Source of the DNA: an uncultured Desulfobacteraceae bacterium
GTDB taxonomy: Bacteria > Desulfobacterota > Desulfobacteria > Desulfobacterales > UBA5616
Direction of reading: 5' to 3'
Length of the DNA: 42,900 nucleotides
Assembly: GCA_964440555.1 (NCBI GenBank)
Contig: CAYTSY010000008.1
Location: 1 to 42,900 of the forward strand
The translations under genes were made by a program, and so were the position numbers. Shown here piece by piece: positions 27,675 through 39,042 of the stretch. The first letter of the stretch is position 1; each line of letters starts with the position of its first letter. A model generated the notes under the pieces. That model was not told where the DNA came from and did no database searches. It saw only the letters and a program-made list of their open reading frames with translations.

Positions 27675-28046
27675 TTATATGAGCATTTCAACTTCAATGT
27701 CTAATCCCTTGGCAATTATTTTTAATGAATCAATTGTGGGGTTTCTTTTACCGTTCTCTATCTGAGAAAGATAGGCTGCACTGATGCCAACTTTTTTAGC
27801 CAGCTCATTCATTTTGATTTTCTTATATTCTCTCCATGCACGGATAGGGCTGATTCCGTCAAGAACGGCAAAAGTGACTTCACCTGGAACTGTTATTTCT
27901 TTGCCTTCCTGAATGGCTTTTACATTTCTTTCTATATCTTGTATATCCTCAGCATCTTCCAGCGCTTCCTGAATTTTTTTATATTCACTGAAAGGGATAA
28001 CAGCCCATTCGGGTTTTCCATTTTTTTCTATAATTTGAACACTCAT
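27675..28046 (-). CDS. Type II antitoxin, XRE-family HTH with N-terminal Phd-like extension
   Basis: C-terminal HTH MNELAKKVGISAAYLSQIENGKRNPTIDSL. There is a 4-nt overlap with the upstream RelE-like gene. Confidence 0.75.
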   Translation of the reverse strand: MSVQIIEKNGKPEWAVIPFSEYKKIQEALEDAEDIQDIERNVKAIQEGKEITVPGEVTFAVLDGISPIRAWREYKKIKMNELAKKVGISAAYLSQIENGKRNPTIDSLKIIAKGLDIEVEMLI

Positions 28047-28297
28047 TTGTATACCTCCCCTCGAGTTTTTAAGGTGATAACGTGGATTAAAAGTTCATCG
28101 TCGTTAACGGTGTATACGATTCTCCAATCACCGACTCGAAGTCTATAGCCCGGATGGCCCGTTAATTTTTTTACATTACGCATCCCATTGGGATTATGCG
28201 CTAATTCTTGTATTTTCTTTCCGATGGTTAATGCAACAGTGCGCGGCATTCTTCGAAGCGTCTTGTCCGCATCTTTGCTGAAAGTTATTTTGTACAT
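28043..28297 (-). CDS. Type II toxin, RelE/ParE family
   Basis: MYKITFSKDADKTLRRMP...KLTGHPGYRLRVGDWRIVYTVNDDELLIHVITLKTRGEVY is a classic RelE/StbE pattern. The gene order is toxin first (HigBA-like). Confidence 0.8.
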   Translation of the reverse strand: MYKITFSKDADKTLRRMPRTVALTIGKKIQELAHNPNGMRNVKKLTGHPGYRLRVGDWRIVYTVNDDELLIHVITLKTRGEVYK

Positions 28298-28381
28298 GTT
28301 GTATATGTTAACAAAAAGAAACAAAAAAGCAAGATTAAAGTTAGCTGGTAGTTATTTTATCACACTGCAGAAATGAGGATG

Positions 28382-29011
28382 TCAGCCCATCGGATAAACA
28401 GCAAATATCGTGCAGCTCCAGATGGAATGGGAGATGATCACCGCAGCCAGGCTTTTCGTCCGCCAGTACAGGGCGCCCCAAAAGGCGCCGGCTACGGCAG
28501 CGGCGCCGATTAGCATGAAATTGAACGACCAGATATGAACTCCGGCATAGACCGCGGTTGACAGGAGCCACCCCTGCCATCCGCCGAAGCGGTTGATCAG
28601 GTTTTTTTGAAGATATCCCCGCCAGTATATTTCTTCGCAGGGCCCGGTGATGAAGAAAAGCAGAAGCGAGATGACCCACACGGGCGTTCCGGCGCCTTTA
28701 TCGTAAATTCCTCCGATCTGCTGGTCGGCAAAGGGCAGGAGGAACCCGGAAACTTTTTTCCCCATCCAGAAAATTCCATATAGCACTGCCGCCGATGCCA
28801 CACCCAGAAGAATGGCCCTGCCGTTAAAGGCCAGGGAATCTTTTTGATCCTTTTGCAGCAAAAAAGACAACGCCGCCAAAGTCGTTGCCGATGCGGAAAT
28901 TTTAATCCAAAAGGTGGCCCATGTCAGATAAAACGTGACAAACCACAATACGGCCGCCAGCAAGACCGTCCCGATCACTGGAGCCGGCAACTTCTTGCTT
29001 TGATTCAACAC
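28382..29011 (-). CDS. CPBP-family intramembrane glutamic endopeptidase (CAAX protease-like)
   Basis: Contains PCEEIYWRGY, AVYAGVHIW and IISHSIWS motifs. The GTG at 29011 overlaps the upstream stop (GTGTTGA). The ORF-track start at 29164 would overlap the prenyltransferase by 160 nt. Confidence 0.75.
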   Translation of the reverse strand: MLNQSKKLPAPVIGTVLLAAVLWFVTFYLTWATFWIKISASATTLAALSFLLQKDQKDSLAFNGRAILLGVASAAVLYGIFWMGKKVSGFLLPFADQQIGGIYDKGAGTPVWVISLLLFFITGPCEEIYWRGYLQKNLINRFGGWQGWLLSTAVYAGVHIWSFNFMLIGAAAVAGAFWGALYWRTKSLAAVIISHSIWSCTIFAVYPMG

Positions 29012-30018
29012 ACGCCCTCCAGGATCAGGGAAAGAACCAGCAATACACCGAATGCCGTATCCAATTGCGCGGTCCGGGCGTCGGCATCGCTGGGCATCTG
29101 CCTGATCATCAGGCGAAACAAACGCAGTGCCAGGGGAATCGAAAGCAGTACTATAAGCGACCATAAATGCAGAGGACCGAAAAAAGACATCGCCACGACG
29201 CCCAGATACGCCATGAGGATCAGAATGTAGTATAATGTCAGACCTTTTCGTTGCCCCAACAGAATGGCCAGCGTTGAAATCCCCTTGCTGTGATCGTGGG
29301 CGATATCGCGGATATTATTGGCCAGCAGAACCAGCGCAACCAGAATTCCGAAGGGCAGGGATATCCAAAAGGCGTTCATGCTTAACGTCTGTCTCTGAAC
29401 AAAATAGGCGCCCTCCACCATCAATGGGCCCCACATGAGAAATACGGACACCTCCCCCAGGGCAAGATATTTGTATTTCAGCGGGGGCGCCGTGTACATC
29501 AGGCTGGCAAACACACCGATCAGGCAAATGGCCAGAAGCTCCCATCCGCGGGTCGCCACCAGGAAGAGACCGATTAAAGCTGAGATCCCATATAGTAAAA
29601 TTACCGCTATGCCGATTTGCTTTTCGGTCAATTTCCCTTCCACCAATGGATGCGGGCGATATTGGGCGGTGGAGGCGTCGCAGGTATCCACCCCGTTTTT
29701 AACGTCATAGTAATCATTGACCAGGTTGGTGGCGGCATGCACGGCAACAGCCCCAAGCAGGGTGATGGAATAATAAATCCATGAAAAATTGCCGTCCAAT
29801 GACGCCAGGACGCTGCCCACGCTTACGGAAATTGCGCTCATCGTAAAAGACCACGGGCGGCTGGCCAGAAACCAGTTTCGATAAACGTTCACTCTAAAAT
29901 AATTCCTTCCTGCATAAACAAATGCTTTACCAGTTTTTAAAATAACAGATGATAAAAACCGGTAACTCCCATATCGGAGTTTGGGAGGGTTGTCAACGGC
30001 GCCTTTTCCCCTCAGCAA
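29005..30018 (-). CDS. UbiA-superfamily prenyltransferase, MenA-like (1,4-dihydroxy-2-naphthoate prenyltransferase family)
   Basis: Contains NLVNDYYDVKNGVD and NNIRDIAHD aspartate-rich motifs and about 8 TM segments. An alternative GTG start at 29892 is likely. Confidence 0.75.
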   Translation of the reverse strand: MLRGKGAVDNPPKLRYGSYRFLSSVILKTGKAFVYAGRNYFRVNVYRNWFLASRPWSFTMSAISVSVGSVLASLDGNFSWIYYSITLLGAVAVHAATNLVNDYYDVKNGVDTCDASTAQYRPHPLVEGKLTEKQIGIAVILLYGISALIGLFLVATRGWELLAICLIGVFASLMYTAPPLKYKYLALGEVSVFLMWGPLMVEGAYFVQRQTLSMNAFWISLPFGILVALVLLANNIRDIAHDHSKGISTLAILLGQRKGLTLYYILILMAYLGVVAMSFFGPLHLWSLIVLLSIPLALRLFRLMIRQMPSDADARTAQLDTAFGVLLVLSLILEGVC

Positions 30019-30036: not shown

Positions 30037-30687
30037 CTAGTCGGGAGCGCCGGCCTTTTCCCAATCTTCGATTTCAACGTGAGACTCAACTTCTTCCCAG
30101 CCGGTAATCATGGCTTTGATATGGGCGCAGATCGTATGGCCGGTTGTGGTCATATAAACATGAACGGCCACAAAGGATAAAATGAGAAAGGCCCCTGCCA
30201 TATGAATTGCTGCGATCATCCCCAGGGAAAGAAATTGGGAAGCACCGTCCGGCCAGGAATTGTACGACCAGTATAAAAAACCTGTTGTCATCTGTATGGG
30301 CAGCATAACGGCTGCCAGGGACAGATAGGTCAGGCGTTGAAGCGGGTTGTGCTTGGCATCTTTGCGTTTTGGGGCAGGATGGGGCCGGCCCAGGAAGATG
30401 CCATGGGCATAATAAAGAATCACGGCGAGCATTTTTTTGGTTGTCGGGATGTAACTGCGCCACTCCCCGGTGGTAAAAATCCAGAACACGAAAAAGCCGA
30501 AAGCGATGAGCCAGGTGATGCCCAAAAAATTATGGACGGCAACCGCAGATTCAAATCCGAAAAGCGTATAGACACCGTGAATTTCAAGTCCTGTGACCAG
30601 GAGCAGGACAATCAGAATCATTTGAAGCCAATGCCAGGCTCTTTCGTAGCGCGTGTAGAGATAAATACGGGTCATATGGTCGGCCAT
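30037..30687 (-). CDS. Membrane di-heme cytochrome b (Ni/Fe-hydrogenase/FdnI-type cytochrome b family)
   Basis: 4-5 TM helices with conserved His (ERAWHWLQ, AVHNFLG, AAIHMAGAF, AVHVYMT). It starts 3 nt after the stop of the octaheme cytochrome gene. Confidence 0.7.
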   Translation of the reverse strand: MADHMTRIYLYTRYERAWHWLQMILIVLLLVTGLEIHGVYTLFGFESAVAVHNFLGITWLIAFGFFVFWIFTTGEWRSYIPTTKKMLAVILYYAHGIFLGRPHPAPKRKDAKHNPLQRLTYLSLAAVMLPIQMTTGFLYWSYNSWPDGASQFLSLGMIAAIHMAGAFLILSFVAVHVYMTTTGHTICAHIKAMITGWEEVESHVEIEDWEKAGAPD

Positions 30688-30690
30688 GCG

Positions 30691-32316
30691 TCAATTCTCC
30701 TTTCTGCGAAAGCTTGCGATCACCCGTCCCAATCCATGGACAAACACGCCGAAAAACGAACCGGCAACCATGGCCCACCCGAGGATATCAATCGGTTTGA
30801 AACGGTCCCGGCCGGGCATATAGAAACCGGCGAGGTCAGCCATGCGGCCATTGGAATCAACGTGGCATTCCACGCATTTAACGACATTGTTTTTGGGCGC
30901 AACCATATGGGTGATGGGATAGACGTAGGTGCTGTCCACGAAATCGAATTTTCCGGAAAACGGCAACCCCATGAAATCCATCCCCTTTTTAAGCGCGCCG
31001 TCCCAGTCCAGAGTAGTCCAATATCCGTCGGGGCCGGACAAAAGCGGCGCCAGAAGGGTATTGTTGATTTTGTCATAAGGCTGTTTTCCCCGGTGAACCT
31101 TAAAGGGGAAAATACGGGCGTTTTTGTCATTTTGATCGCCTAAAGGCCGGCTGACGCGAACCGGTTGGGACGGGTCGATCACATCTTTTACCGTGAGGGT
31201 CACGATGGAGCCATTGAACCAGAAATATTCCGGCATAACATTTTTTTCCCATTTCATCTGCCCCTTGATGGAAAGGTAGTCGTCCTTACCCAACTCGCCC
31301 TTGACCGTGAAGGGTTTCCCGGCCTTTGTTTTGCCGGCTTTGGACCAGTCCCAGCTCATTTTGGTAGGATTGACCCGCGCAAATGTCGGGATATGGCAGG
31401 ATTGGCATGCCACTTTGTCCGTGTGGTCGTTGGGTTTATCTCCTGATTCGTGAGGAAAGGCCGTGTGACAGGATTCACAAGTGATTTTAGGCGTCAGGTC
31501 GTCTTCGACCAGACTTTTACGGTCTTTTGCCGCCGGTATGGTATAGATTCTCCCGGCTATGCGGTGTTGTTTGGTGGTATGGCATCGGGTGCAGGCAAAG
31601 TCCTGGCCGTCAGCGCCCATGTGAACATCCAGCGTCTTGTTGGGATCGGCCATGGAGGAGTCCAGGTCCCCATGTTTGACGCCGTCGCCGCCGCCGCCGT
31701 AAAAATGGCATGAACCGCAATTTTTACGGCCCGGCCGGGCCACCTGGGAAACGGCATTCTGAAGGTCCTTTTGAATTTCCGCAGCGATTTCCTTCTCCGC
31801 CGGATCATCTGATTCGGAGAAATACCCATAATCCTCAAAGGCTTCTGAAAAATTGAATTCCTTTTGGCCATGACAGACCAGACAGTTGACCAGGTCGGCT
31901 TTGCCGTTCCAGCCGGTATGGCAGGCCTGGCATTGTTTGTCATTCATGTAATTGGTCGAGATGCAGAAATTGTTGACCGAATCCCCGGCTTTTCCGGTTT
32001 TCTTCCCGTTGATTTCGGTGGGCGCAAGCCATGTCCAGTGGATAGTTTGCGTAAACTGCCGATGAGCCTCGGAGTGACAGGAGATGCAGGCGCCGGTGAT
32101 CTGTGATCCGGATTCAAAGGCCTGTTGGAGGGCTTTATGCTTGGTGTGGTCCGTCGTGGACCAATGCGTGCCGTCCTTGGTGGCCTGTCTGGCCATGGCG
32201 CGTCCAACGGGCCGGCGCTCATCCTGGGCGTTGAGATCAGAAATCGCCGTCGATAAGGATAAGACCAGACCGATCAGCACCGGAAATCCACATAACCGGA
32301 AAATATTTCGTTTCAT
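30691..32316 (-). CDS. Octaheme c-type cytochrome, tetrathionate-reductase (Otr) family-like, with C-terminal TM anchor
   Basis: Eight CxxCH motifs: CISCH, CQACH, CLVCH, CGSCH, CTRCH, CESCH, CQSCH, CVECH. Signal peptide from the ATG at 32316 (MKRNIFRLCGFPVLIGLVLSLS). Otr-like N-terminus STTDHTKHKAL...CISCH...HWTW. C-terminal hydrophobic helix ILGWAMVAGSFFGVFVHGLG. Confidence 0.85.
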   Translation of the reverse strand: MKRNIFRLCGFPVLIGLVLSLSTAISDLNAQDERRPVGRAMARQATKDGTHWSTTDHTKHKALQQAFESGSQITGACISCHSEAHRQFTQTIHWTWLAPTEINGKKTGKAGDSVNNFCISTNYMNDKQCQACHTGWNGKADLVNCLVCHGQKEFNFSEAFEDYGYFSESDDPAEKEIAAEIQKDLQNAVSQVARPGRKNCGSCHFYGGGGDGVKHGDLDSSMADPNKTLDVHMGADGQDFACTRCHTTKQHRIAGRIYTIPAAKDRKSLVEDDLTPKITCESCHTAFPHESGDKPNDHTDKVACQSCHIPTFARVNPTKMSWDWSKAGKTKAGKPFTVKGELGKDDYLSIKGQMKWEKNVMPEYFWFNGSIVTLTVKDVIDPSQPVRVSRPLGDQNDKNARIFPFKVHRGKQPYDKINNTLLAPLLSGPDGYWTTLDWDGALKKGMDFMGLPFSGKFDFVDSTYVYPITHMVAPKNNVVKCVECHVDSNGRMADLAGFYMPGRDRFKPIDILGWAMVAGSFFGVFVHGLGRVIASFRRKEN

Positions 32317-32336
32317 GTCGTTTCTCCGCTTATTCC

Positions 32337-32359
32337 CCCTCCCCCTCGATGGGGGAGGG
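32337..32359 (-). other. Perfect 9-bp G/C hairpin between the small secreted protein gene and the octaheme cytochrome gene
   Basis: On the + strand: CCCTCCCCC-tcgat-GGGGGAGGG. It sits 17 nt after the upstream stop and about 20 nt before the octaheme ATG, with no T tract. Confidence 0.45.
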
Positions 32360-32375
32360 CCGGGGGGTGCGGGAT

Positions 32376-32723
32376 TTATTTGCATTTTGCCGGCGCAGGC
32401 GAATCCGCGGCGTGGTCATGCAGGTACGTATAGATGTCCAACAACTCCTGTGCAGAGAGTTTGTCCCATTCCGCCTTGCATCCGAATTCCTCAAAGTCTT
32501 TGCCGGCAAAGACTTTTTTCCATTGCGCCTGTGTTTTGCTGTCCGGGCCGATTGCCGGTTTTGCGGAATCTGTGCCGCCCCGTTCATGACACAGTTTGTA
32601 AATGTTGCGATAGGCGTATTTACCTTTTCTTCCATCCCCCTTGTCTTCCGACAACGCCGAACCGATGCAGGTCAATACGAATACAACCGATAAAATGCCG
32701 ATCCACCATTTTTTGTTCATCAT
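32376..32723 (-). CDS. Small secreted protein, cytochrome-c-like layout but with a lone CH (YKLCH) instead of CxxCH
   Basis: Signal peptide MMNKKWWIGILSVVFVLTCIGSALS. The mature region has GKYAYRNIYKLCHERGG...P..KTQAQWKKVF...LSAQELLDIYTYLHDHAADSPAPAKC. Confidence 0.55.
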   Translation of the reverse strand: MMNKKWWIGILSVVFVLTCIGSALSEDKGDGRKGKYAYRNIYKLCHERGGTDSAKPAIGPDSKTQAQWKKVFAGKDFEEFGCKAEWDKLSAQELLDIYTYLHDHAADSPAPAKCK

Positions 32724-32764: not shown

Positions 32765-33079
32765 TTAAAAAACCAGATAACGGTCAACCATGTTTAACAT
32801 TTCCGCGTTTCTCCCCTGGGTGGCAAAATCCTTGAATCCGACGCCGGGGACCTCCTGTTCACGGCCATGAAGACCGTTGGCGCGAAAACTGACATCGCAA
32901 ATGGAGAGCTTCGCCTTTCCCACCAGTTGTTTAAATTCCTGCGCCATGGTCAGAAGGACCCCTTTTCCGGTGAAAAAAATACGCACCTGTATGGCTTTTT
33001 CATGAGCTGCGGCGGTCAGTTTGACCACATCGGCCAGATGCCGGTCGGAGCTGACGAGGATGCCGAGGGTTTTTTCCAT
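32765..33079 (-). CDS. DsrE/DsrF-like family protein
   Basis: 104 aa. LGILVSSD...LTAAAHEKAIQVRIFFTGKGV...LSICDVSFRANGL...DRYLVF has the length and pattern of the DsrE/F fold, with one candidate active Cys. Confidence 0.55.
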   Translation of the reverse strand: MEKTLGILVSSDRHLADVVKLTAAAHEKAIQVRIFFTGKGVLLTMAQEFKQLVGKAKLSICDVSFRANGLHGREQEVPGVGFKDFATQGRNAEMLNMVDRYLVF

Positions 33080-33093
33080 GGATGACTCCTTTA

Positions 33094-33615
33094 TCAGAGT
33101 GTTGAGTTTTGGGTTTTGGGTTTTGAGTTTTGGGTCATGGCCCGGGTCACTTTTTCAAAAAGAGTTTCCCGGACGTTTTTATCCGTCGCATACTTGAGGA
33201 TCAGCAGATAGATCCCTTCCCGGATGAGATCCGACTCATCTTTATTTCTGTTGCATTCAACACGCTTGAGTACTCCCAGCAATTCAGAGACTTCCGGGCT
33301 GATCCGGGTCCTGACCTCGATGGACAGGGGGCCCATGGCTTCGAAGGGGATTTCTTCGCTTCCTTCCCGGCAGGCGTCGTCGTGAGATGCATACTGAACG
33401 ATGAGGCGGTAGCACTCCATGGCCTTGTCCGCAAATCGCTGCTTTAAAAACTCTTCGCCCAGAGACGTGATGATTTTCCTGGCCCAGAAGGCTTCATCGC
33501 TGTCTGAGCCGTATTTTTCGAGTACTTTTGTAGCTGATTCAAGCGCACGGTCATAGCACGCGCAACGTTCCAGGACCATGGCCCTGACAAGATCCTTATC
33601 CATCTGTTCCTCCAT
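33094..33615 (-). CDS. Conserved hypothetical protein; C-terminal part resembles a ribbon-helix-helix (CopG-like) domain
   Basis: 173 aa with five Cys (RCAC, ECY, DACR, VEC). The C-terminal LSIEVRTRISPEVSELLGVLKRVE...DLIREGIYLLILKY fits a beta-alpha-alpha pattern. The last 13 codons translate the heptamer repeat. Confidence 0.5.
   Translation of the reverse strand: MEEQMDKDLVRAMVLERCACYDRALESATKVLEKYGSDSDEAFWARKIITSLGEEFLKQRFADKAMECYRLIVQYASHDDACREGSEEIPFEAMGPLSIEVRTRISPEVSELLGVLKRVECNRNKDESDLIREGIYLLILKYATDKNVRETLFEKVTRAMTQNSKPKTQNSTL
33099..33136. repeat. Heptamer array GTGTTGA GTTTTGG GTTTTGG GTTTTGA GTTTTGG GTC
   Basis: Read directly. It uses the same units as 12685-12716 and overlaps the 3' end of CDS 33094-33615. 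Confidence 0.85.
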
Positions 33616-33636: not shown

Positions 33637-33810
33637 TTACCACCAGCAAATTACTTTATCGTGGGAAAAGATCTCATCCACCAGGGCGGCCCAATCCACC
33701 TCTTTTTCATAAAGGGCCTTTACGGACGATTCGCCGGATTTTGAGACCAACCCGCAAAGTTTTTCCACTGTTTCATCGGGTTCGGACCGTAAAATATGAA
33801 GCACTTTCAT
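33637..33810 (-). CDS. Small conserved hypothetical protein (DsrH/TusB-like size)
   Basis: The ATG at 33810 is preceded by GAGGGAA. MKVLHILRSEPDETVEKL... ends in ICWW. The family call is tentative. Confidence 0.45.
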   Translation of the reverse strand: MKVLHILRSEPDETVEKLCGLVSKSGESSVKALYEKEVDWAALVDEIFSHDKVICWW

Positions 33811-33818
33811 TTGTTCCC

Positions 33819-34106
33819 TCAAAAGGGGATGACGACATCCGCCTCGTTTATTTTTTCAGCAATCTCGGCCATGGTCGCATACTGAAAGCCGTAGTTTTCA
33901 ACGTTGACCGGGTCGTTTGAAAATCGCTTTCCTTCCATTTCATCCAAAAAATCCATGTTGTCCTGATAGGCTTCATCCATGTTGACGATCGGGTGATGAA
34001 GGACGACCATGGTCACCTCAGTGTCTTCAAGCAACAACCCCAGGCTGGTTCTTAAACCCTCGTATTGCTGTTCGACGTCTTTGATTAGAACGATTGCTTT
34101 TTTCAT
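33819..34106 (-). CDS. DsrE-like fold protein lacking Cys (DsrF/H-like)
   Basis: 95 aa. MKKAIVLIKD...VTMVVLHHPIV...ADVVIPF has a DsrEFH-like length and beta-alpha pattern, with no cysteine. Confidence 0.5.
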   Translation of the reverse strand: MKKAIVLIKDVEQQYEGLRTSLGLLLEDTEVTMVVLHHPIVNMDEAYQDNMDFLDEMEGKRFSNDPVNVENYGFQYATMAEIAEKINEADVVIPF

Positions 34107-34124: not shown

Positions 34125-34370
34125 TCAGCCTTTTTTAATATAATAACGGGTAAATCCCGCTGAATCATCCACCATTCCCAAAAACGCGTTGCCTCCCTTG
34201 GCGCCGAAGTCCGGGATATCGTTTTTCGAACCCGGGTCCGTTCCCAGAATTTCCAGAATTTGTCCTGTCTTCATGTCCTTGAGCATTTTTTTTGTTTTAA
34301 GCAACGGCATGGGACAGGTTAATCCCCGGGCGTCGAGCAATTTGTCTGCCTGAATCGAATTGACATCCAT
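34125..34370 (-). CDS. tusA: TusA-family sulfurtransferase (SirA-like)
   Basis: 81 aa with the canonical LDARGLTCPMPLLKTKKML motif (the CPxP active-site Cys). Confidence 0.85.
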   Translation of the reverse strand: MDVNSIQADKLLDARGLTCPMPLLKTKKMLKDMKTGQILEILGTDPGSKNDIPDFGAKGGNAFLGMVDDSAGFTRYYIKKG

Positions 34371-34392: not shown

Positions 34393-35589
34393 TTAAAAAA
34401 TTACAAATTTTTCCGTTTTTTCATTCCAGATCGCGATAAACACCCATGCCAGCAGAAATATGAAAAATAGCGGAAGCGCGACAGACCATGAAAACACGCT
34501 GATCAGAGAAACGCCTTTGCCCAGTTTTTCATCGAGGTTCAAAACCGTCAACAACCGGGCCGCCGATGAATTGGCAAGGGCAAAGGCCACCAGCGTAGAA
34601 ACCAGTTTAAGGTGTCCTTCACCGATCCGCCACAGCGTGCTGGAGCCACATCCGCCGGCCAGGAGCATGCCGAATCCGAAAATCAGTCCTCCGGTCATGC
34701 TTCCGAGCCAGAACGGATGGTAGATCCCCATGGTTTCCGGCTGAATATAGCTCCACTTGATGACTGCCGAACCTGCTCCGTAAATCATCAGGCTCATGGC
34801 CACGACCCGCACCATTTCCGCGTCTCCGGTCATAAACGGGCAGCGGAAGGCCCTTACAAAGCAAAAGCGTGACCGGTGCATGGTCAGGCCGATCAAAAAA
34901 CCGAAGAACAACAGTCCGCCGATCTGGGTTTTATCCATCCATGAATAGAGATAGAAAATGGCCAGGGCTGCAGCAAAAACCGATCCGCCGACCCAGGGTT
35001 GAACCTTTGCCCAGTTTATGCGTGCCTCACGGGCCGTTTCCCGGGGAGGATCAACCGTTATTTTGGGTGGGAATCGATCCATTTCCCACAACAAGTATCG
35101 AAGACCGAGCCATGCGCCCGCGCCAAGGCCCAGCATCATGGCATATCCTCCCATGGAAAATACGCCGATAGCGGTGTAAAACCCGCCGACATTGCAGCCG
35201 CCGGCCAGGGCCGCCCCCGTCCCCATGAAAATGCCGCCGGCAATGCCTTTGGCATATTCAATCGGGGGCGACTTCCGGACTTTAAATTGTCTCCCCATCA
35301 ACGCGGAAGCCAGGGCGCCGAGCAACAAACCGGTATTGGAAACCGACATGGTATGAATCCACGGCGCATCAGGCTGTTTTTCAATGATTCCTGCAAAGTA
35401 AAACATCCAGTCTCCCCAGTTGCGATATCCCCCGACGATTCCCCAGGGACTTTGCCATAGAAAAAGGAGCAACGCCAATACCGCGATAAAGATGCCCGCC
35501 AGCCATGTGGGCCAGTCCCTTTCAAAAACAGCAATGTAATTTTTTCTGGCCTCGTCTTTTACGGTTGCCCAAAAACTTTCCGCTTCCAC
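34393..35589 (-). CDS. YeeE/YedE-family sulfur-compound (thiosulfate) transporter
   Basis: Polytopic membrane protein with the three conserved Cys-containing re-entrant motifs (LAGGCNVGGF, RSRFCFVRAF, LAGGCGSSTLW). The GTG at 35589 is preceded by AAGGAAAAG and is preferred. The ORF-track TTG at 35652 translates the repeat. Confidence 0.85.
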   Translation of the reverse strand: MEAESFWATVKDEARKNYIAVFERDWPTWLAGIFIAVLALLLFLWQSPWGIVGGYRNWGDWMFYFAGIIEKQPDAPWIHTMSVSNTGLLLGALASALMGRQFKVRKSPPIEYAKGIAGGIFMGTGAALAGGCNVGGFYTAIGVFSMGGYAMMLGLGAGAWLGLRYLLWEMDRFPPKITVDPPRETAREARINWAKVQPWVGGSVFAAALAIFYLYSWMDKTQIGGLLFFGFLIGLTMHRSRFCFVRAFRCPFMTGDAEMVRVVAMSLMIYGAGSAVIKWSYIQPETMGIYHPFWLGSMTGGLIFGFGMLLAGGCGSSTLWRIGEGHLKLVSTLVAFALANSSAARLLTVLNLDEKLGKGVSLISVFSWSVALPLFFIFLLAWVFIAIWNEKTEKFVIF

Positions 35590-35602
35590 AGTCTTTTCCT
35601 TT

Positions 35603-35665
35603 AGCTTAAAGTTACAAGCTACAAGCTGAAAGCCAAAAGCTTGTATTTTCAACTTTCAACTTTCT
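35603..35665. repeat. Nine-unit heptamer array AGCTTAA AGTTACA AGCTACA AGCTGAA AGCCAAA AGCTTGT ATTTTCA ACTTTCA ACTTTCT
   Basis: Read directly. It contains the 7-bp stem ACAAGCT (35621-35627) / AGCTTGT (35638-35644). It lies between the porin stop and the yeeE start, inside the operon. Confidence 0.85.
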
Positions 35666-35668
35666 TCA

Positions 35669-37405
35669 TCAATACCTGAATGTCGCGGAAATATACCCGT
35701 CCCAGACATCGTCGACAATGGGATTGAGCCCGTCAAAAGACGTTGCGTCCGAAATTTTGACCGGTTGTCCCAGAGGGTTGCCGCTGCCGGTATAGGCATA
35801 GTCGTAGACCCTCCCACCCAGGGTTATGAAAAAGACGTTGCTGAAAACCGGTTGAATGTAGTAGGCTTCATAAACGCTGCCCCGAACCGCCAGTTTGCTT
35901 CCCACCAGCGAATCTTCCGCTCCGGTGAAATTGAACCAGTACTTGGAACCCCAGTTATACTCAAGACCGAGTCTGGCCGCGTACGGCATGGGGAACAGGG
36001 CGCCCGCGTAAATGCCGTAACCGTCTCTTTCCTTTAACTGGCCGTTGGAGCTCAACAGACCGACGCCCATGATTTCATAAAATGGGTTTCTGGAAATCTG
36101 GGAGGGATCCGTACGGGTATAGGAAGCAGCGAAGAACAGATCAATATCCGCCAGCCGCTCGGCAAGATTGGTGGTTAAAAGCAGAGACGCGGCGTCCCAG
36201 TCGCCGATGTTGGTCATAGGTTCCATACGGGTGATGAATGCACCGCTGTTTTGCTCAAAGTAGTATTCGTTGATGCCGTCCCCGGTCATGTCCATCCGGG
36301 AGACGATAAACGGCATGACGGTTAAGCCCGTAAATCCATCGGTGATGTCCCAGGCATGGGCATAATTAAACACCGCGCTGGTCGTATCGTTGTCAAAGAG
36401 CGTGGCGATGAAGCCGAACATATGGACATCATCGACCTCGGGCTGGGTGGAACTTAAAGAGGAACTGTTGCCCCAGTCACCCTCAAATCCTACGCCGTAG
36501 CAGAGTTTAAAATCTGCGCCCGGAATGCCGGTAACCTCTTCCAATCCAAAGTTCAGTGAAGCCCCGTCAAATTGCCAGTTGATAATCGTGCCCAGCGGAG
36601 AACCGCCTTCAAGGCTGTAGCTTGCGTATTCCAGCGGCGGCCCATCGGTTGACGGCCGTCTCCCCAGACTGAAGTTGACGGGAACAGACCCCATTTCGTC
36701 CTTGTAATTGAAATATGCCCGTTCCAGGCGAAGGGTGTCTCCATGGGGGAGGCTTGATGAGTTGCCGTCAAAGGTTACATCGCCTAAACTCCCCTGATTG
36801 AATTTAACGCCGGTGCTGTCCCCGAAAACTTTATACGCGGCAAGCCGTCCGCCGAAGCTCAATTGATCGTTATATTTGGAGTTGAAGTTCAAGCGGAATT
36901 TATTGGTGTAAATAATGTCGTTGTCCACATCGGTTTTCATGGGCGGGGGAACCATGCCCGCACCGGCCATGGCCGCCATGCCACCCTGAATCTGGGCAAG
37001 GGTCGCGCCGTTGAATCCTCCAGCCGGCGGGGGGGAAGGGTTAAAAGGCGTAAAAAAACCGCCGATGAGCGCAGACGGCGCACTGACGATATCCTGGTAA
37101 TGAATGCTGTCCGCCCTGGATCGGAGTTCAACGCCCAGCGCCAGTTTGTCGGTGGCAGTGTGAATTTCCGCTTTGTTGAGTCTTTCGTCTATTTCAGCGA
37201 TGTCGGACTCTTTTTTGGCGTCGGCCGTTTCCATGGTTTCGATTTTTTGTTGCAGGGTTGTAAGATTGTCCTGCATGGTTTTGAGTTGCTCTTTGAGGGC
37301 GTTTACATCATCAGCAGCGGCAACGGTTTGTGAAAACAACAAAAGCGAAAAACATATCGCCGCCGGCCATACGCCCCGGATCATTTTACCGGTTTTTTTC
37401 ATCAT
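35669..37405 (-). CDS. Outer-membrane beta-barrel protein with N-terminal coiled coil (DUF3373-like putative porin)
   Basis: ATG-ATG at 37405 is preceded by AAAGGAGGAG. Signal peptide ...LLLFSQTVAAADD, then a heptad-rich segment LKEQLKTMQDNLTTLQQKIETME. The long beta-rich region has alternating aromatic/Gly residues and a terminal ...SATFRY. Confidence 0.65.
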   Translation of the reverse strand: MMKKTGKMIRGVWPAAICFSLLLFSQTVAAADDVNALKEQLKTMQDNLTTLQQKIETMETADAKKESDIAEIDERLNKAEIHTATDKLALGVELRSRADSIHYQDIVSAPSALIGGFFTPFNPSPPPAGGFNGATLAQIQGGMAAMAGAGMVPPPMKTDVDNDIIYTNKFRLNFNSKYNDQLSFGGRLAAYKVFGDSTGVKFNQGSLGDVTFDGNSSSLPHGDTLRLERAYFNYKDEMGSVPVNFSLGRRPSTDGPPLEYASYSLEGGSPLGTIINWQFDGASLNFGLEEVTGIPGADFKLCYGVGFEGDWGNSSSLSSTQPEVDDVHMFGFIATLFDNDTTSAVFNYAHAWDITDGFTGLTVMPFIVSRMDMTGDGINEYYFEQNSGAFITRMEPMTNIGDWDAASLLLTTNLAERLADIDLFFAASYTRTDPSQISRNPFYEIMGVGLLSSNGQLKERDGYGIYAGALFPMPYAARLGLEYNWGSKYWFNFTGAEDSLVGSKLAVRGSVYEAYYIQPVFSNVFFITLGGRVYDYAYTGSGNPLGQPVKISDATSFDGLNPIVDDVWDGYISATFRY

Positions 37406-37454
37406 CTGCTCCTCCTTTGAGTATGATTTTTTTATTTGTTTGCGCATATGATAA

Positions 37455-37627: not shown

Positions 37628-37638
37628 AGGAGGTGCCC

Positions 37639-39042
37639 ATGGAAATCGCCGCTTATTGGAAGACCATAGCGGATACGCTGCAGGACGGGCTGTTGGTGAT
37701 TGACCCGGAAGGAAACATCCGGGCGGCCAATCAGGCAGCTTCGCGGATCACCGGTTATTCAAAAGAGGAACTCGTCGGCAAGTCCTGCCGCATTCTCAAT
37801 TGCACCGGCTGCAACATCATCGGCAAAGGCCCGGGTGAAAACTGGTGCGGTCTTTTTTCAAAAGGGGAGGTAAGGGAAAAAAAGTGCCTGATCACCAACC
37901 TGGATCGCCGGGCTGTTCATATCCTCAAATCGGCCAAGGTGTTGCGCGATGATGACGGCCGGATAGTCGGCGCCGTGGAAAATCTTACCGATATCACCGA
38001 TAAAGTCAGACAACAGCAGGAGTTGACCCGCCTGCGGCAGACCTTTCACCTGGATGACGGCTATTGCGGGATATTAGGCAAATCCCCGGTCATGCAAAAC
38101 CTGTTTGCGCTCATCGAAAACGTTTCCCAATCCGATGCACCGGTCATCATTTCGGGTCAGAGCGGAACCGGAAAAGAATTGGCGGCCCGCGCTATACATG
38201 AAACCGGTCCCCGTAAGAAGAAACCCTTCATCAAGGTCAATTGCGCAGCCTTGAACGAAAATGTCCTGGAAAGTGAACTCTTCGGCCATGTCCGGGGAGC
38301 ATATACCGGTGCTGACAGGACGCGGATCGGCAGGTTTGAAGCGGCTCACGAAGGGACTATTTTTTTAGATGAAATCGGAGACTTGCCGTTATCCATCCAG
38401 GTTAAGCTGCTGCGTGTTTTAGAAGAAAAGAAGATCGAGCGCGTGGGGGATCACCGACCGATCTCCGTGGACGTCAGAATCATCACCGCCACACATAAAA
38501 ACCTGGAGTCTCTGATCGAAAAACAACTGTTTCGGGAAGATCTGTTTTTTCGGATCAATGTATTTCCCCTGCATTGTCCTTCCCTGGTTGATCGCATCGA
38601 AGATATCCCCATCATTGCACAACACTTTATCCACCAAAGCGCCGCAAAAACAGGGAAAAAGATCCTCGGTCTGACGCCGGAAGCCATGGAAAAACTGATG
38701 GCCTATCCCTGGCCCGGCAATATCCGCGAACTTAGAAATACCATTGAGTATGCTTTTGTCCTCTGTCCCAGCGGAGGCATTGATGTGCGGCATTTGCCGC
38801 CCAACGTGGCAAGAGGCCAAATACTTGACCGTAAAGGACCAAGCGGCGTGCAACGTTTTGGCGATGCGCAGAGGGATCGTATCGTTGATGCGCTCAACCG
38901 GGCCGGCCAAAGCCGGACCGATGCCGCCCGGCTCCTGGGTATAAGCCGTGTAACATTATGGAAGCAAATGAAAAAATATAACATCACCCCTGAGGCAGAC
39001 AGCCAGGGAATCCAAAAGCCAACGCTGGTCGATGAATCGTGA
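37639..39042 (+). CDS. Sigma54-dependent transcriptional activator with N-terminal Cys-rich PAS domain
   Basis: PAS region (LLVIDPEGNIRAANQAASRITGYSKEELVGKSC). AAA+ domain with Walker A GQSGTGKE, ESELFGHVRGAYTGA (GAFTGA-type loop) and LDEIGD. C-terminal Fis-type HTH AARLLGISRVTLWKQMKKY. The ATG at 37639 is preceded by AGGAGG. Confidence 0.9.
   Translation: MEIAAYWKTIADTLQDGLLVIDPEGNIRAANQAASRITGYSKEELVGKSCRILNCTGCNIIGKGPGENWCGLFSKGEVREKKCLITNLDRRAVHILKSAKVLRDDDGRIVGAVENLTDITDKVRQQQELTRLRQTFHLDDGYCGILGKSPVMQNLFALIENVSQSDAPVIISGQSGTGKELAARAIHETGPRKKKPFIKVNCAALNENVLESELFGHVRGAYTGADRTRIGRFEAAHEGTIFLDEIGDLPLSIQVKLLRVLEEKKIERVGDHRPISVDVRIITATHKNLESLIEKQLFREDLFFRINVFPLHCPSLVDRIEDIPIIAQHFIHQSAAKTGKKILGLTPEAMEKLMAYPWPGNIRELRNTIEYAFVLCPSGGIDVRHLPPNVARGQILDRKGPSGVQRFGDAQRDRIVDALNRAGQSRTDAARLLGISRVTLWKQMKKYNITPEADSQGIQKPTLVDES

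Follow-up and report, generated by a model that had tools for sequence, protein, structure and literature searches.

The physiological role of Otr, an octaheme cytochrome c, has been unclear since the structure of the Shewanella protein became available, the enzyme being promiscuous, soluble and tied to no obvious pathway. A 42,900-nucleotide stretch of DNA from an uncultured Desulfobacteraceae bacterium (assembly GCA_964440555.1, contig CAYTSY010000008.1), hereafter referred to as the window, carries on its reverse strand a gene for an Otr-like protein that ends in a hydrophobic helix and is followed directly by a gene for a cytochrome b. Is such an arrangement an oddity of one genome, and what reaction might an Otr attached to the membrane in this way perform? 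The initial annotation of the window regarded the helix as unusual and suggested, from the pairing of a membrane-anchored Otr with a cytochrome b, a menaquinol:substrate oxidoreductase of undefined specificity. The analysis reported here identifies a widespread membrane-bound form of Otr of which the window gene is an ordinary member, and the tail helix is a defining mark of a large subfamily, which is co-inherited with a dedicated cytochrome b. For the claim under examination, this result is mostly clarifying and brings little surprise.

Tail anchor and cytochrome b in the Otr family

The octaheme gene spans positions 30691-32316 on the reverse strand and encodes a protein of 541 residues composed of a signal peptide, a catalytic domain and a tail anchor. 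Its full open reading frame (ORF) covers 30691-32385, within which the preferred start is the ATG at 32316, preceded by a GGAG ribosome-binding site; the longer reading from 32385 is unlikely to represent the real start because it overlaps the end of the upstream gene. The signal peptide (residues 1-27, MKRNIFRLCGFPVLIGLVLSLSTAIS; 32236-32316, reverse strand) contains a hydrophobic segment at residues 8-26 with a Kyte-Doolittle value of 2.0, followed by AIS/DL, where cleavage would presumably take place. In agreement with the initial annotation, the protein contains exactly eight canonical CxxCH motifs within residues 77-481 (first Cys at 77, 129, 145, 200, 242, 280, 304 and 481) as well as the Otr-like N-terminal segment STTDHTKHKAL...CISCH...HWTW. 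Eight such motifs were also counted in every one of the 120 best homologues obtained from a search of 5.8 billion proteins, in which more than 5,400 relatives were found at E ≤ 1e-10.

By all sequence tests applied, the window protein is a member of the Otr family. It matches TIGR04315 with 520.6 bits (cut-off 375, E 3.6e-156) over model positions 1-440 of 440, and in a scan of the whole genome (521.4 bits) it was the sole family member in the assembly, which comprises 3.4 Mb and is 75% complete. PF11783 is also matched, and the alignment with the Shewanella Otr that had been proposed in the initial annotation was obtained with the sequence of 1sp3_A at E 2.4e-97, covering window residues 85-510. 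In the NCBIfam and Pfam scans, no match to models of NrfA, MccA or HAO was detected at E ≤ 0.01, and the remaining matches at this threshold were a sub-threshold hit to the DmsE-family decahaem model TIGR03508 (22.6 versus 192.2 bits) and generic cytochrome c3/c7/c554 models.

The tail helix occupies residues 511-533 (ILGWAMVAGSFFGVFVHGLGRVI; 30718-30786, reverse strand), starting approximately 25 residues beyond haem 8 in a C-terminal extension of roughly 55 residues, and the sequence past haem 8 reads ...PGRDRFKPIDILGWAMVAGSFFGVFVHGLGRVIASFRRKEN. With a Kyte-Doolittle mean of about 1.5-1.7 over 19 residues, it is membrane-spanning by hydropathy, as the initial annotation had anticipated, and it is followed by a basic end, RRKEN, that is predicted to be cytoplasmic. 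The helix itself is thus real, but it is not unusual, being present in all 120 of the best homologues and in 20 of the 30 genomic loci described next.

Evidence for co-inheritance comes from a TIGR04315 search in 301 genomes of the phylum, in which 44 genomes gave a match above the cut-off and the 30 best loci were examined together with 1.5-kb flanks. Twenty of these loci encode an Otr with a tail of 36-46 residues that includes a hydrophobic helix (Kyte-Doolittle 1.5-2.7), and immediately downstream of each of the 20 lies a homologue of the window cytochrome b with 46-66% identity. Nine loci contain complete genes that end soon past haem 8 (...DPQKK), with the cytochrome b in none of them, and the gene in the one remaining locus is truncated by the contig end. 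In a FastTree phylogeny, the soluble and tail-anchored proteins form two clades, and the window protein is nested within the anchored clade.

A converse scan of species-representative genomes with a cytochrome b alignment yielded at least 592 confirmed relatives, from which 80 loci were kept, 70 of them with enough upstream DNA. An Otr ends just ahead of the cytochrome b in 69 of these 70. Carriers include many Desulfobacterota, together with Rhodocyclales-type Pseudomonadota such as Azonexus, Thauera, Azoarcus, Dechloromonas and Pseudothauera, and Desulforhopalus vacuolatus DSM 9700 and Azonexus hydrophilus are among those in culture. Since the co-occurrence counts come from related genomes, they reflect retention across a diverse clade, not many independent gains. 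Within the window, the junction of the two genes reads TGA-CGC-ATG, which confirms the reported distance of 3 nucleotides between the octaheme stop and the next ATG; an AGGAG ribosome-binding site lies within the last Otr codons, ahead of the cytochrome b gene, and the cytochrome b is translationally coupled to otr. The proposal of a membrane-anchored Otr with its own cytochrome b therefore fares well in its functional part, a quinol:substrate oxidoreductase being the natural inference, but the architecture, which is widespread among sulfate reducers, is neither rare nor previously unreported.

In a metagenome-assembled genome assigned to Proteobacteria, a single ORF of 766 residues (locus L129, 126-2426) comprises a complete tail-anchored Otr fused to the cytochrome b, with a short basic linker joining the tail helix to the cytochrome b N-terminus. 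This linker agrees with a cytoplasmic location of both the tail C-terminus and the cytochrome b N-terminus. The ORF is a single case, and represents either a natural fusion or the product of a lost stop codon or sequencing error. Beside it, on the reverse strand (L129, 3291-4523), lies a gene for a 410-residue protein whose C-terminal half resembles, by eye, a Ni_hydr_CYTB-type cytochrome b (RTERVIHWFNA...).

The tail also carries a conserved sequence motif, H[GA]xx[RK], which was found in 120 of 120 homologues; in it, a His is followed four residues later by an Arg or Lys, at the end of the helix that faces the cytoplasm. In the window protein this His is His527 (codon 30736-30738, reverse strand). 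The anchors of E. coli FdnH (...FAGLIFHYIGIGPNKE) and HyaA (...AAAVGVHAVASAVDQRRRH) likewise have a His at the cytoplasmic end, so that one anchor design recurs in three enzyme classes that share this type of cytochrome b. In Wolinella hydrogenase, His305 of the HydA anchor and His122 of HydC are reported by Gross et al. to be required for quinone reactivity.

Active-site residues and the cytochrome b partner

The residues expected to shape the active site were examined in a family alignment consisting of the window protein, 47 related loci and the 1SP3 segment. An invariant Gly-Lys lies approximately 7-9 residues ahead of an invariant NN(F/Y)-Cys, and the combination GK...NNFC was found in all 120 of the best database homologues. 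The Lys of this pair is K109 in the window protein (GKAGD; codon 31990-31992, reverse strand), and it aligns with the residue that is K56 of 1SP3 when counted along the chain, a ligand number for which confirmation in the literature was not found. Lys56 of 1SP3 is reportedly the haem-2 ligand described by Mowat et al. (2004), and on this basis K109 is the candidate for Lys ligation of the catalytic haem in position 2. The initial annotation had looked for this ligand in the DHTKHK stretch; the lysines of that stretch are not conserved, and the assignment has to be replaced by the invariant GK.

The second conserved element is C118 (VNNFC; codon 31963-31965, reverse strand), a putative active-site residue whose alignment column contains either Cys or a TGA codon in every family sequence complete at that position. 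Among the 20 genes for tail-anchored Otrs in the phylum sample, 13 (L022, L024, L027, L028, L033, L036-L039, L041, L042, L044 and L046) carry an in-frame TGA at exactly this column; no such TGA was found in the soluble forms among the sampled loci, and the window gene has a Cys codon. The TGA-bearing genes probably encode selenocysteine (Sec) forms, and 10 of these 13 proteins possess an extra Cys two residues ahead of the haem-2 motif (NW-C-R-CTSCH). A 2026 review (PMC13188914) likewise includes TIGR04315 in its list of selenoprotein families annotated in GenBank. The interchange of Cys and Sec at this position speaks for a catalytic chalcogen and, in consequence, for sulfur or selenium chemistry. 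In addition, the neighbourhood of haem 2 is altered in the subclade of the window protein, where DKxC..CH.GW (DKQCQACHTGW in the window) stands against PRCTSCHAGY. As to gene surroundings, the Sec-type otr-cytochrome b pairs of L027, L036, L041 and L042 stand alone beside an upstream gene assigned by eye to the ArsR family of regulators, and the pairs of L030, L044 and L046 adjoin genes for σ54 activators.

The partner gene (30037-30687, reverse strand) encodes a protein of 216 residues with four predicted transmembrane helices. Its designation as a di-heme cytochrome b in the initial annotation is well supported by family matching, invariant His residues and predicted fold, all of which point to the FdnI/HyaC (Ni_hydr_CYTB) type, for which the binding of two haems b would be expected. 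The match to PF01292 reaches 88.7 bits (gathering threshold 30.1, E 5e-25). The best NCBIfam match is PhsC (NF011582) with 99.5 bits, and an assignment as a PhsC equivalog was rejected on this score, which is far under the equivalog cut-off of 204. An AlphaFold2 model with a mean predicted local distance difference test score (pLDDT) of 89.7 gave 1kqf_C, the FdnI subunit of E. coli formate dehydrogenase-N, as the best Foldseek match (E 4.6e-4, probability 1.00, template modelling score 0.62, 204 columns), followed by 6g94_A, the HyaC subunit of hydrogenase-1 (probability 1.00). A phmmer search of the cytochrome b against PDB sequences returned nothing meaningful, and the link to FdnI and HyaC is one of predicted fold and of an alignment to which their sequences were added.

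Five His residues, H19, H52, H103, H162 and H176, are invariant among 25 cytochrome b orthologues. When E. coli FdnI and HyaC are added to the alignment, H19, H52, H162 and H176 fall on FdnI H18, H57, H155 and H169, and H103 on FdnI H101. The four FdnI residues H18, H57, H155 and H169 are presumably the haem ligands described by Jormakka et al. (2002). In the window protein, the aligned residues are distributed as one each in the first and second helices and two in the fourth, which corresponds to the bis-His ligand pattern of the FdnI/HyaC type. Basic residues, counted by eye, are grouped at the N-terminus, in the long loop between helices 2 and 3 (nine K/R) and at the C-terminus, from which a four-helix topology with a cytoplasmic N-terminus is predicted by the positive-inside rule. 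The periplasmic-side haem would accordingly be carried by H52/H162 and the cytoplasmic-side haem by H19/H176. By analogy with FdnI, a quinone site is expected at the cytoplasmic-side haem, because the loop bearing the invariant H103, a K(H/L)NPLQR motif ahead of helix 3 (KHNPLQR in the window) and the tail His would all be located there.

Operon context and possible function

The otr-cytochrome b pair forms the end of a conserved σ54-controlled operon on the reverse strand. The first gene of the operon encodes a DUF3373 outer-membrane protein (35669-37447; PF11853, 393.9 bits), and a gene of this family is also found beside otr in L001, L004, L007, L017, L018, L047, L054 and L055. It is followed by genes for a YedE/YeeE-type inner-membrane sulfur transporter (34393-35652; PF04143, 165.5 bits, with the TsuA and YedE models of NCBIfam below their cut-offs) and a TusA sulfurtransferase (34125-34370; PF01206, 79.2 bits). 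Next come two small conserved YTD proteins, one of 95 residues (33819-34106), which shows 52-63% identity in L006 and L014 and corresponds to a 95-residue gene product in L054 and L055, and one of 61 residues (33637-33822), which is kept in L006, L009 and L014 and replaced at the same site by a 57-residue gene product in L054 and L055. The small-gene set is interrupted by a gene for a protein of 173 residues (33094-33615) without a family match in the NCBIfam and Pfam scans; L054 has a 160-residue gene product at this position, and Desulfosarcina widdelii and L006 have no gene there. A DsrE-like protein of 104 residues (32765-33079; weak PF02635 match, 19.4 bits) is kept in L006, L009, L014, L054 and L055 and is probably a component of DsrEFH type II, an assignment that rests on PMC13293266. 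The gene directly upstream of otr (32376-32723) encodes p115, a secreted protein of 114/115 residues.

The order of the YedE, TusA, 95-residue, 61-residue and 104-residue genes, with the 173-residue gene as an extra, matches the YTD set in both composition and order, and the same order occurs in L006, L054 and L055. This YedE-TusA-small-gene set has been described as the "YTD cluster" of sulfur disproportionators (PMC9751629). More recently, its small proteins have been characterized as a DsrEFH type II (DsrEFH-II) relay that transfers sulfur from TusA to DsrC in vitro and has been read as an oxidative marker (PMC13293266). The full gene order of the window, from the divergent activator through the cytochrome b, is repeated in L054, a 1.18-Mb environmental contig whose Otr is 70% identical to that of the window, and in the cultured Desulfosarcina widdelii (AP021875.1, L055). 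Across these genomes the operon is kept at 60-70% identity. In D. widdelii, a 380-residue triple-rhodanese protein is encoded between p115 and otr (L055, 9420-10559), and a secreted or lipoprotein-like triple-rhodanese protein of 370-400 residues occupies the same place in L002, L003, L005, L006, L009, L012 and L014; only weak, unrelated matches to it were detected in the 75%-complete window assembly.

The p115-otr-cytochrome b trio is whole in 10 of 18 related loci, and three more retain two of the genes, being cut by a contig end or flank. Upstream of otr, p115 is encoded in 13 of these 18 loci and also in L054 and L055. The protein itself was observed only in the Otr subclade of the window and is named a "monohaem cytochrome c" in some databases. 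It lacks CxxCH and has no Pfam or NCBIfam match. Across 26 homologues, it retains three invariant Cys and an invariant C-terminus, ...DSPxPAKCK, in which one Cys is penultimate on a Pro-rich arm. A single-Cys haem motif, YKLCH, was considered and rejected, as the residue past the Cys varies among H, M, N, F, Y and K in the same homologues. An AlphaFold2 model (pLDDT 80.6) returned only non-significant class-I cytochrome c matches in a fold search (E about 1), which tentatively suggests a class-I cytochrome-c-like fold. The protein may be a sulfur carrier.

At the upstream border of the operon, a PAS-domain σ54-dependent activator is encoded divergently on the forward strand (37633-39042; PF00158 at 237 bits, PAS, HTH_8), and the same divergent gene occurs in L054 and L055. 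Downstream of the cytochrome b gene, after 18 nucleotides, lies a gene for a MenA-like prenyltransferase (29005-30018, reverse strand; TIGR00751, 122 bits, cut-off 102), which is the only MenA-family match in the 75%-complete assembly and is overlapped by a gene for a CPBP/Rce1-like intramembrane protease (28382-29164, reverse strand; PF02517, 65 bits). Neither of the two is kept beside otr in the related loci, and both are specific to the window. Just past the operon end, genes for a ParE-family toxin (28043-28324) and an HTH/Phd-like antitoxin (27675-28046) were noted on the reverse strand. A scan of the operon for terminators and promoters gave counts not above the shuffled expectation. The spacer that separates p115 from the start of otr contains a G/C-rich inverted repeat, CCCCCATCGAGGGGGAGGGGG, at 32320-32375, with no T tract behind it.

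Taken together, these features make it probable, though far from certain, that the window encodes a membrane-bound, menaquinone-linked Otr complex that reduces a sulfur compound in the periplasm, with tetrathionate as the first candidate and polysulfide or another sulfane compound as the second. A sulfur compound is favoured because of the operon context and the Cys/Sec exchange. The presence of DsrA in the genome and of the MenA-like gene behind the cytochrome b gene also counts in favour of this reading. Tetrathionate takes first place because it is the substrate of the family's named activity and because its product, thiosulfate, would suit a YeeE/TusA-type importer, and polysulfide or sulfane sulfur takes second place because of the rhodanese in relatives and the precedent of MccSep. 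In the proposed arrangement, the octaheme subunit would be exported to face the periplasm, and past haem 8 its single tail helix would re-cross the membrane to end in the cytoplasm, packing on the four-helix, two-haem cytochrome b as the tails of FdnH and HyaA do on theirs. Electrons from menaquinol would enter at a quinone site by the cytoplasmic-side haem b, at the level of the H103 loop, KHNPLQR and His527, and would pass from the haem b of H19/H176 to that of H52/H162 and onward, close to haem 8, into the chain of c haems. They would finally reach haem 2, with Lys109 as its ligand, where the neighbouring Cys118 would take part in catalysis. Substrate might enter through the DUF3373 outer-membrane protein, and the product, thiosulfate or sulfane sulfur, could be imported by YedE and handed via TusA to the DsrEFH-II-like proteins. 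Electron entry at the C-terminal haem is in line with the positive docking patch reported close to haem VIII in the Shewanella enzyme (PMC4484225).

Several points weigh against this reading. In vitro, the Shewanella Otr shows promiscuity, with activity towards tetrathionate, nitrite and hydroxylamine (PMC4484225), so that family membership leaves the substrate unfixed, and the YTD/DsrEFH-II relay has been argued to serve sulfur oxidation (PMC13293266). The YTD link is confined to the subclade of the window, other anchored otr-cytochrome b pairs standing alone beside ArsR or σ54 regulators, and the changed surroundings of haem 2 suggest that the specificity of this subclade may differ from that of the Shewanella Otr. 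The transmembrane topology is derived from hydropathy and the positive-inside rule only. With a quinol site on the cytoplasmic side, electron flow from quinol to periplasm would spend membrane potential. This is a waste if the acceptor has a high potential, as tetrathionate does, and agrees better with a low-potential acceptor or reverse flow. Reduction against the membrane potential with a low-potential acceptor has reportedly been demonstrated for PhsABC. By analogy, the normal direction of FdnI and HyaC, from donor to quinone, also speaks for caution. To our knowledge, tail-anchored Otrs are known from genes alone.

The same energetic argument makes a complex working in the opposite direction the chief alternative. 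As a periplasmic dehydrogenase, it would use haem 2 to oxidize a reduced compound (sulfide, polysulfide or another) and would reduce menaquinone at the cytoplasmic side, forming an energy-conserving redox loop like those of Fdh-N and hydrogenase-1 and delivering sulfane sulfur to YedE, TusA and DsrEFH-II for further oxidation. The fold of the cytochrome b is nearest to FdnI and HyaC, both from donor:quinone enzymes, the predicted quinone-site elements lie on the cytoplasmic side, a rhodanese and the Cys-bearing p115 are encoded next to otr, and the neighbouring DsrEFH-II relays sulfur towards DsrC in vitro, a property taken as an oxidative marker (PMC13293266). This alternative is nevertheless considered unlikely, since the only characterized Otr is described as a reductase (PMC4484225) and oxidation of thiosulfate to tetrathionate cannot reduce menaquinone (+180 mV versus -70 mV; PMC9751629). 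Only low-potential donors such as sulfide would therefore be workable. In this connection, we know of no sulfide dehydrogenase in the Otr family.

A role in nitrogen metabolism, in which the complex would act as a quinol-linked reductase of nitrite, hydroxylamine or nitric oxide for ammonification or defence against nitrosative stress, with the sulfur genes as mere neighbours, would agree with several genome papers that assign Otr to nitrite reduction (including PMC4911364). It is, however, distinctly improbable here: the window genome encodes a canonical NrfA (405 bits), so that a second nitrite reductase is not needed, the family scans found no nitrogen-metabolism gene within the operon, the operon with the sulfur transporter, relay and rhodanese genes recurs in other genomes at 60-70% identity, and the Cys/Sec exchange at the active site suggests chalcogen chemistry. 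Still further from likelihood is an electron conduit without catalytic function, composed of the cytochrome b, the octaheme protein and the DUF3373 barrel as a porin-cytochrome-like path to minerals or partner cells. The barrel gene does lie beside otr in many loci, distant ones included, but the catalytic features of Otr (the invariant Lys and the Cys/Sec position) are strictly retained, the operon has no second, extracellular multihaem cytochrome, and its remaining genes encode sulfur carriers.

Reduction of a periplasmic sulfur compound by a menaquinone-linked Otr complex thus remains the preferred reading, and it invites a more specific proposal, which is advanced as a doubtful but instructive one. 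The tail-anchored Otr:cytochrome b complex, together with p115 and, in relatives, the rhodanese, might constitute the missing periplasmic front end of YTD/DsrEFH-II in Desulfosarcina-type sulfate reducers. The enzyme would act on carrier-bound or free sulfane sulfur or polythionate sulfur and pass its product to YedE/TusA, p115 might serve as a SoxY-like swinging-arm carrier, and His527 and His103 of the cytochrome b would jointly build a quinone site at the subunit interface.

With regard to earlier work, the pairing of Otr with a cytochrome b has already been noted (PMC4911364), and databases name such proteins automatically. The literature searched yielded no account of the tail anchor with its conserved His, of a tail and a cytochrome b that are inherited one to one, of a separate anchored clade, of a fusion ORF or of an operon uniting Otr with YTD/DsrEFH-II and p115; the main text of the DsrEFH-II paper (PMC13293266) does not contain the word "cytochrome". 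The broader significance is that, unlike the Shewanella enzyme, the majority of the Otr-family proteins in the Desulfobacterota sample are anchored by a tail and belong to a dedicated complex with cytochrome b, and that one lineage has this complex integrated into an operon alongside a sulfur importer and a TusA/DsrEFH-II relay. Desulfosarcina widdelii accordingly offers a concrete, culturable system in which the function of Otr in nature can be addressed, and the operon is relevant to the current dispute about YTD clusters, for which both sulfur oxidation and disproportionation have been proposed as the function. For the annotation of metagenomes, a note of caution follows: "otr" should not be read as indicating a soluble tetrathionate or nitrite reductase.

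Comparison with known systems

The closest characterized relative is the Otr of Shewanella oneidensis (SO_4144, 1SP3), with which the window protein shares membership in TIGR04315, eight CxxCH motifs in the same order, the Lys at the K56 column and the Cys of INNFC. The Shewanella enzyme was soluble on purification and has been investigated as a partner in the CymA/STC network (PMC4484225), in agreement with the initial annotation, which described it as soluble. In contrast, the window protein, with its transmembrane tail and dedicated cytochrome b, falls in a separate clade, and the match to 1sp3 ends past haem 8, that protein having no tail helix. The soluble subtype is defined by the absence of both an anchor and a dedicated quinol dehydrogenase, and the window Otr falls outside it. 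A nearer parallel in gene arrangement is found in Thermosulfurimonas dismutans, for which a membrane link was proposed in a 2016 genome paper between the Otr TDIS_1882 and the adjacent multi-helix cytochrome b TDIS_1883 (PMC4911364). That proposal is a genome-annotation inference, without the tail helix, the conserved His, the strict co-inheritance or the YTD link, and is compared here by description only.

On the side of the membrane subunit, the likeness is to FdnH/FdnI and HyaA/HyaC of E. coli, in which the same cytochrome b fold and four His positions are combined with a periplasmic partner that ends in one transmembrane helix with a His near its cytoplasmic end. Their partner is an Fe-S subunit and they act as donor:quinone reductases, whereas the partner in the window is the catalytic multihaem cytochrome c itself. 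PhsABC, whose PhsC subunit gave the highest-scoring NCBIfam model for the cytochrome b, resembles the window complex in its inferred role as a periplasm-facing reductase of sulfur compounds on a Ni_hydr_CYTB anchor, but its catalytic subunit is a molybdoenzyme and that of the window a haem c protein. In NrfHA and MccA, a catalytic multihaem cytochrome c in the periplasm receives electrons from a dedicated quinol dehydrogenase in the membrane. Their anchors are NapC/NrfH-type tetrahaem cytochromes c or of the NrfD type, unlike the dihaem cytochrome b of the window.

With respect to the active site, a counterpart is provided by MccSep of Geobacter sulfurreducens, a pentahaem selenoprotein polysulfide reductase that forms a tetramer and has a Cys-ligated active haem (PMC13510729). 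Although the window protein has Cys rather than Sec and the two are likened by description only, the residue needed beside the active haem of MccSep, Sec or Cys, for action on a sulfur substrate parallels the Cys/Sec column of the anchored Otrs.

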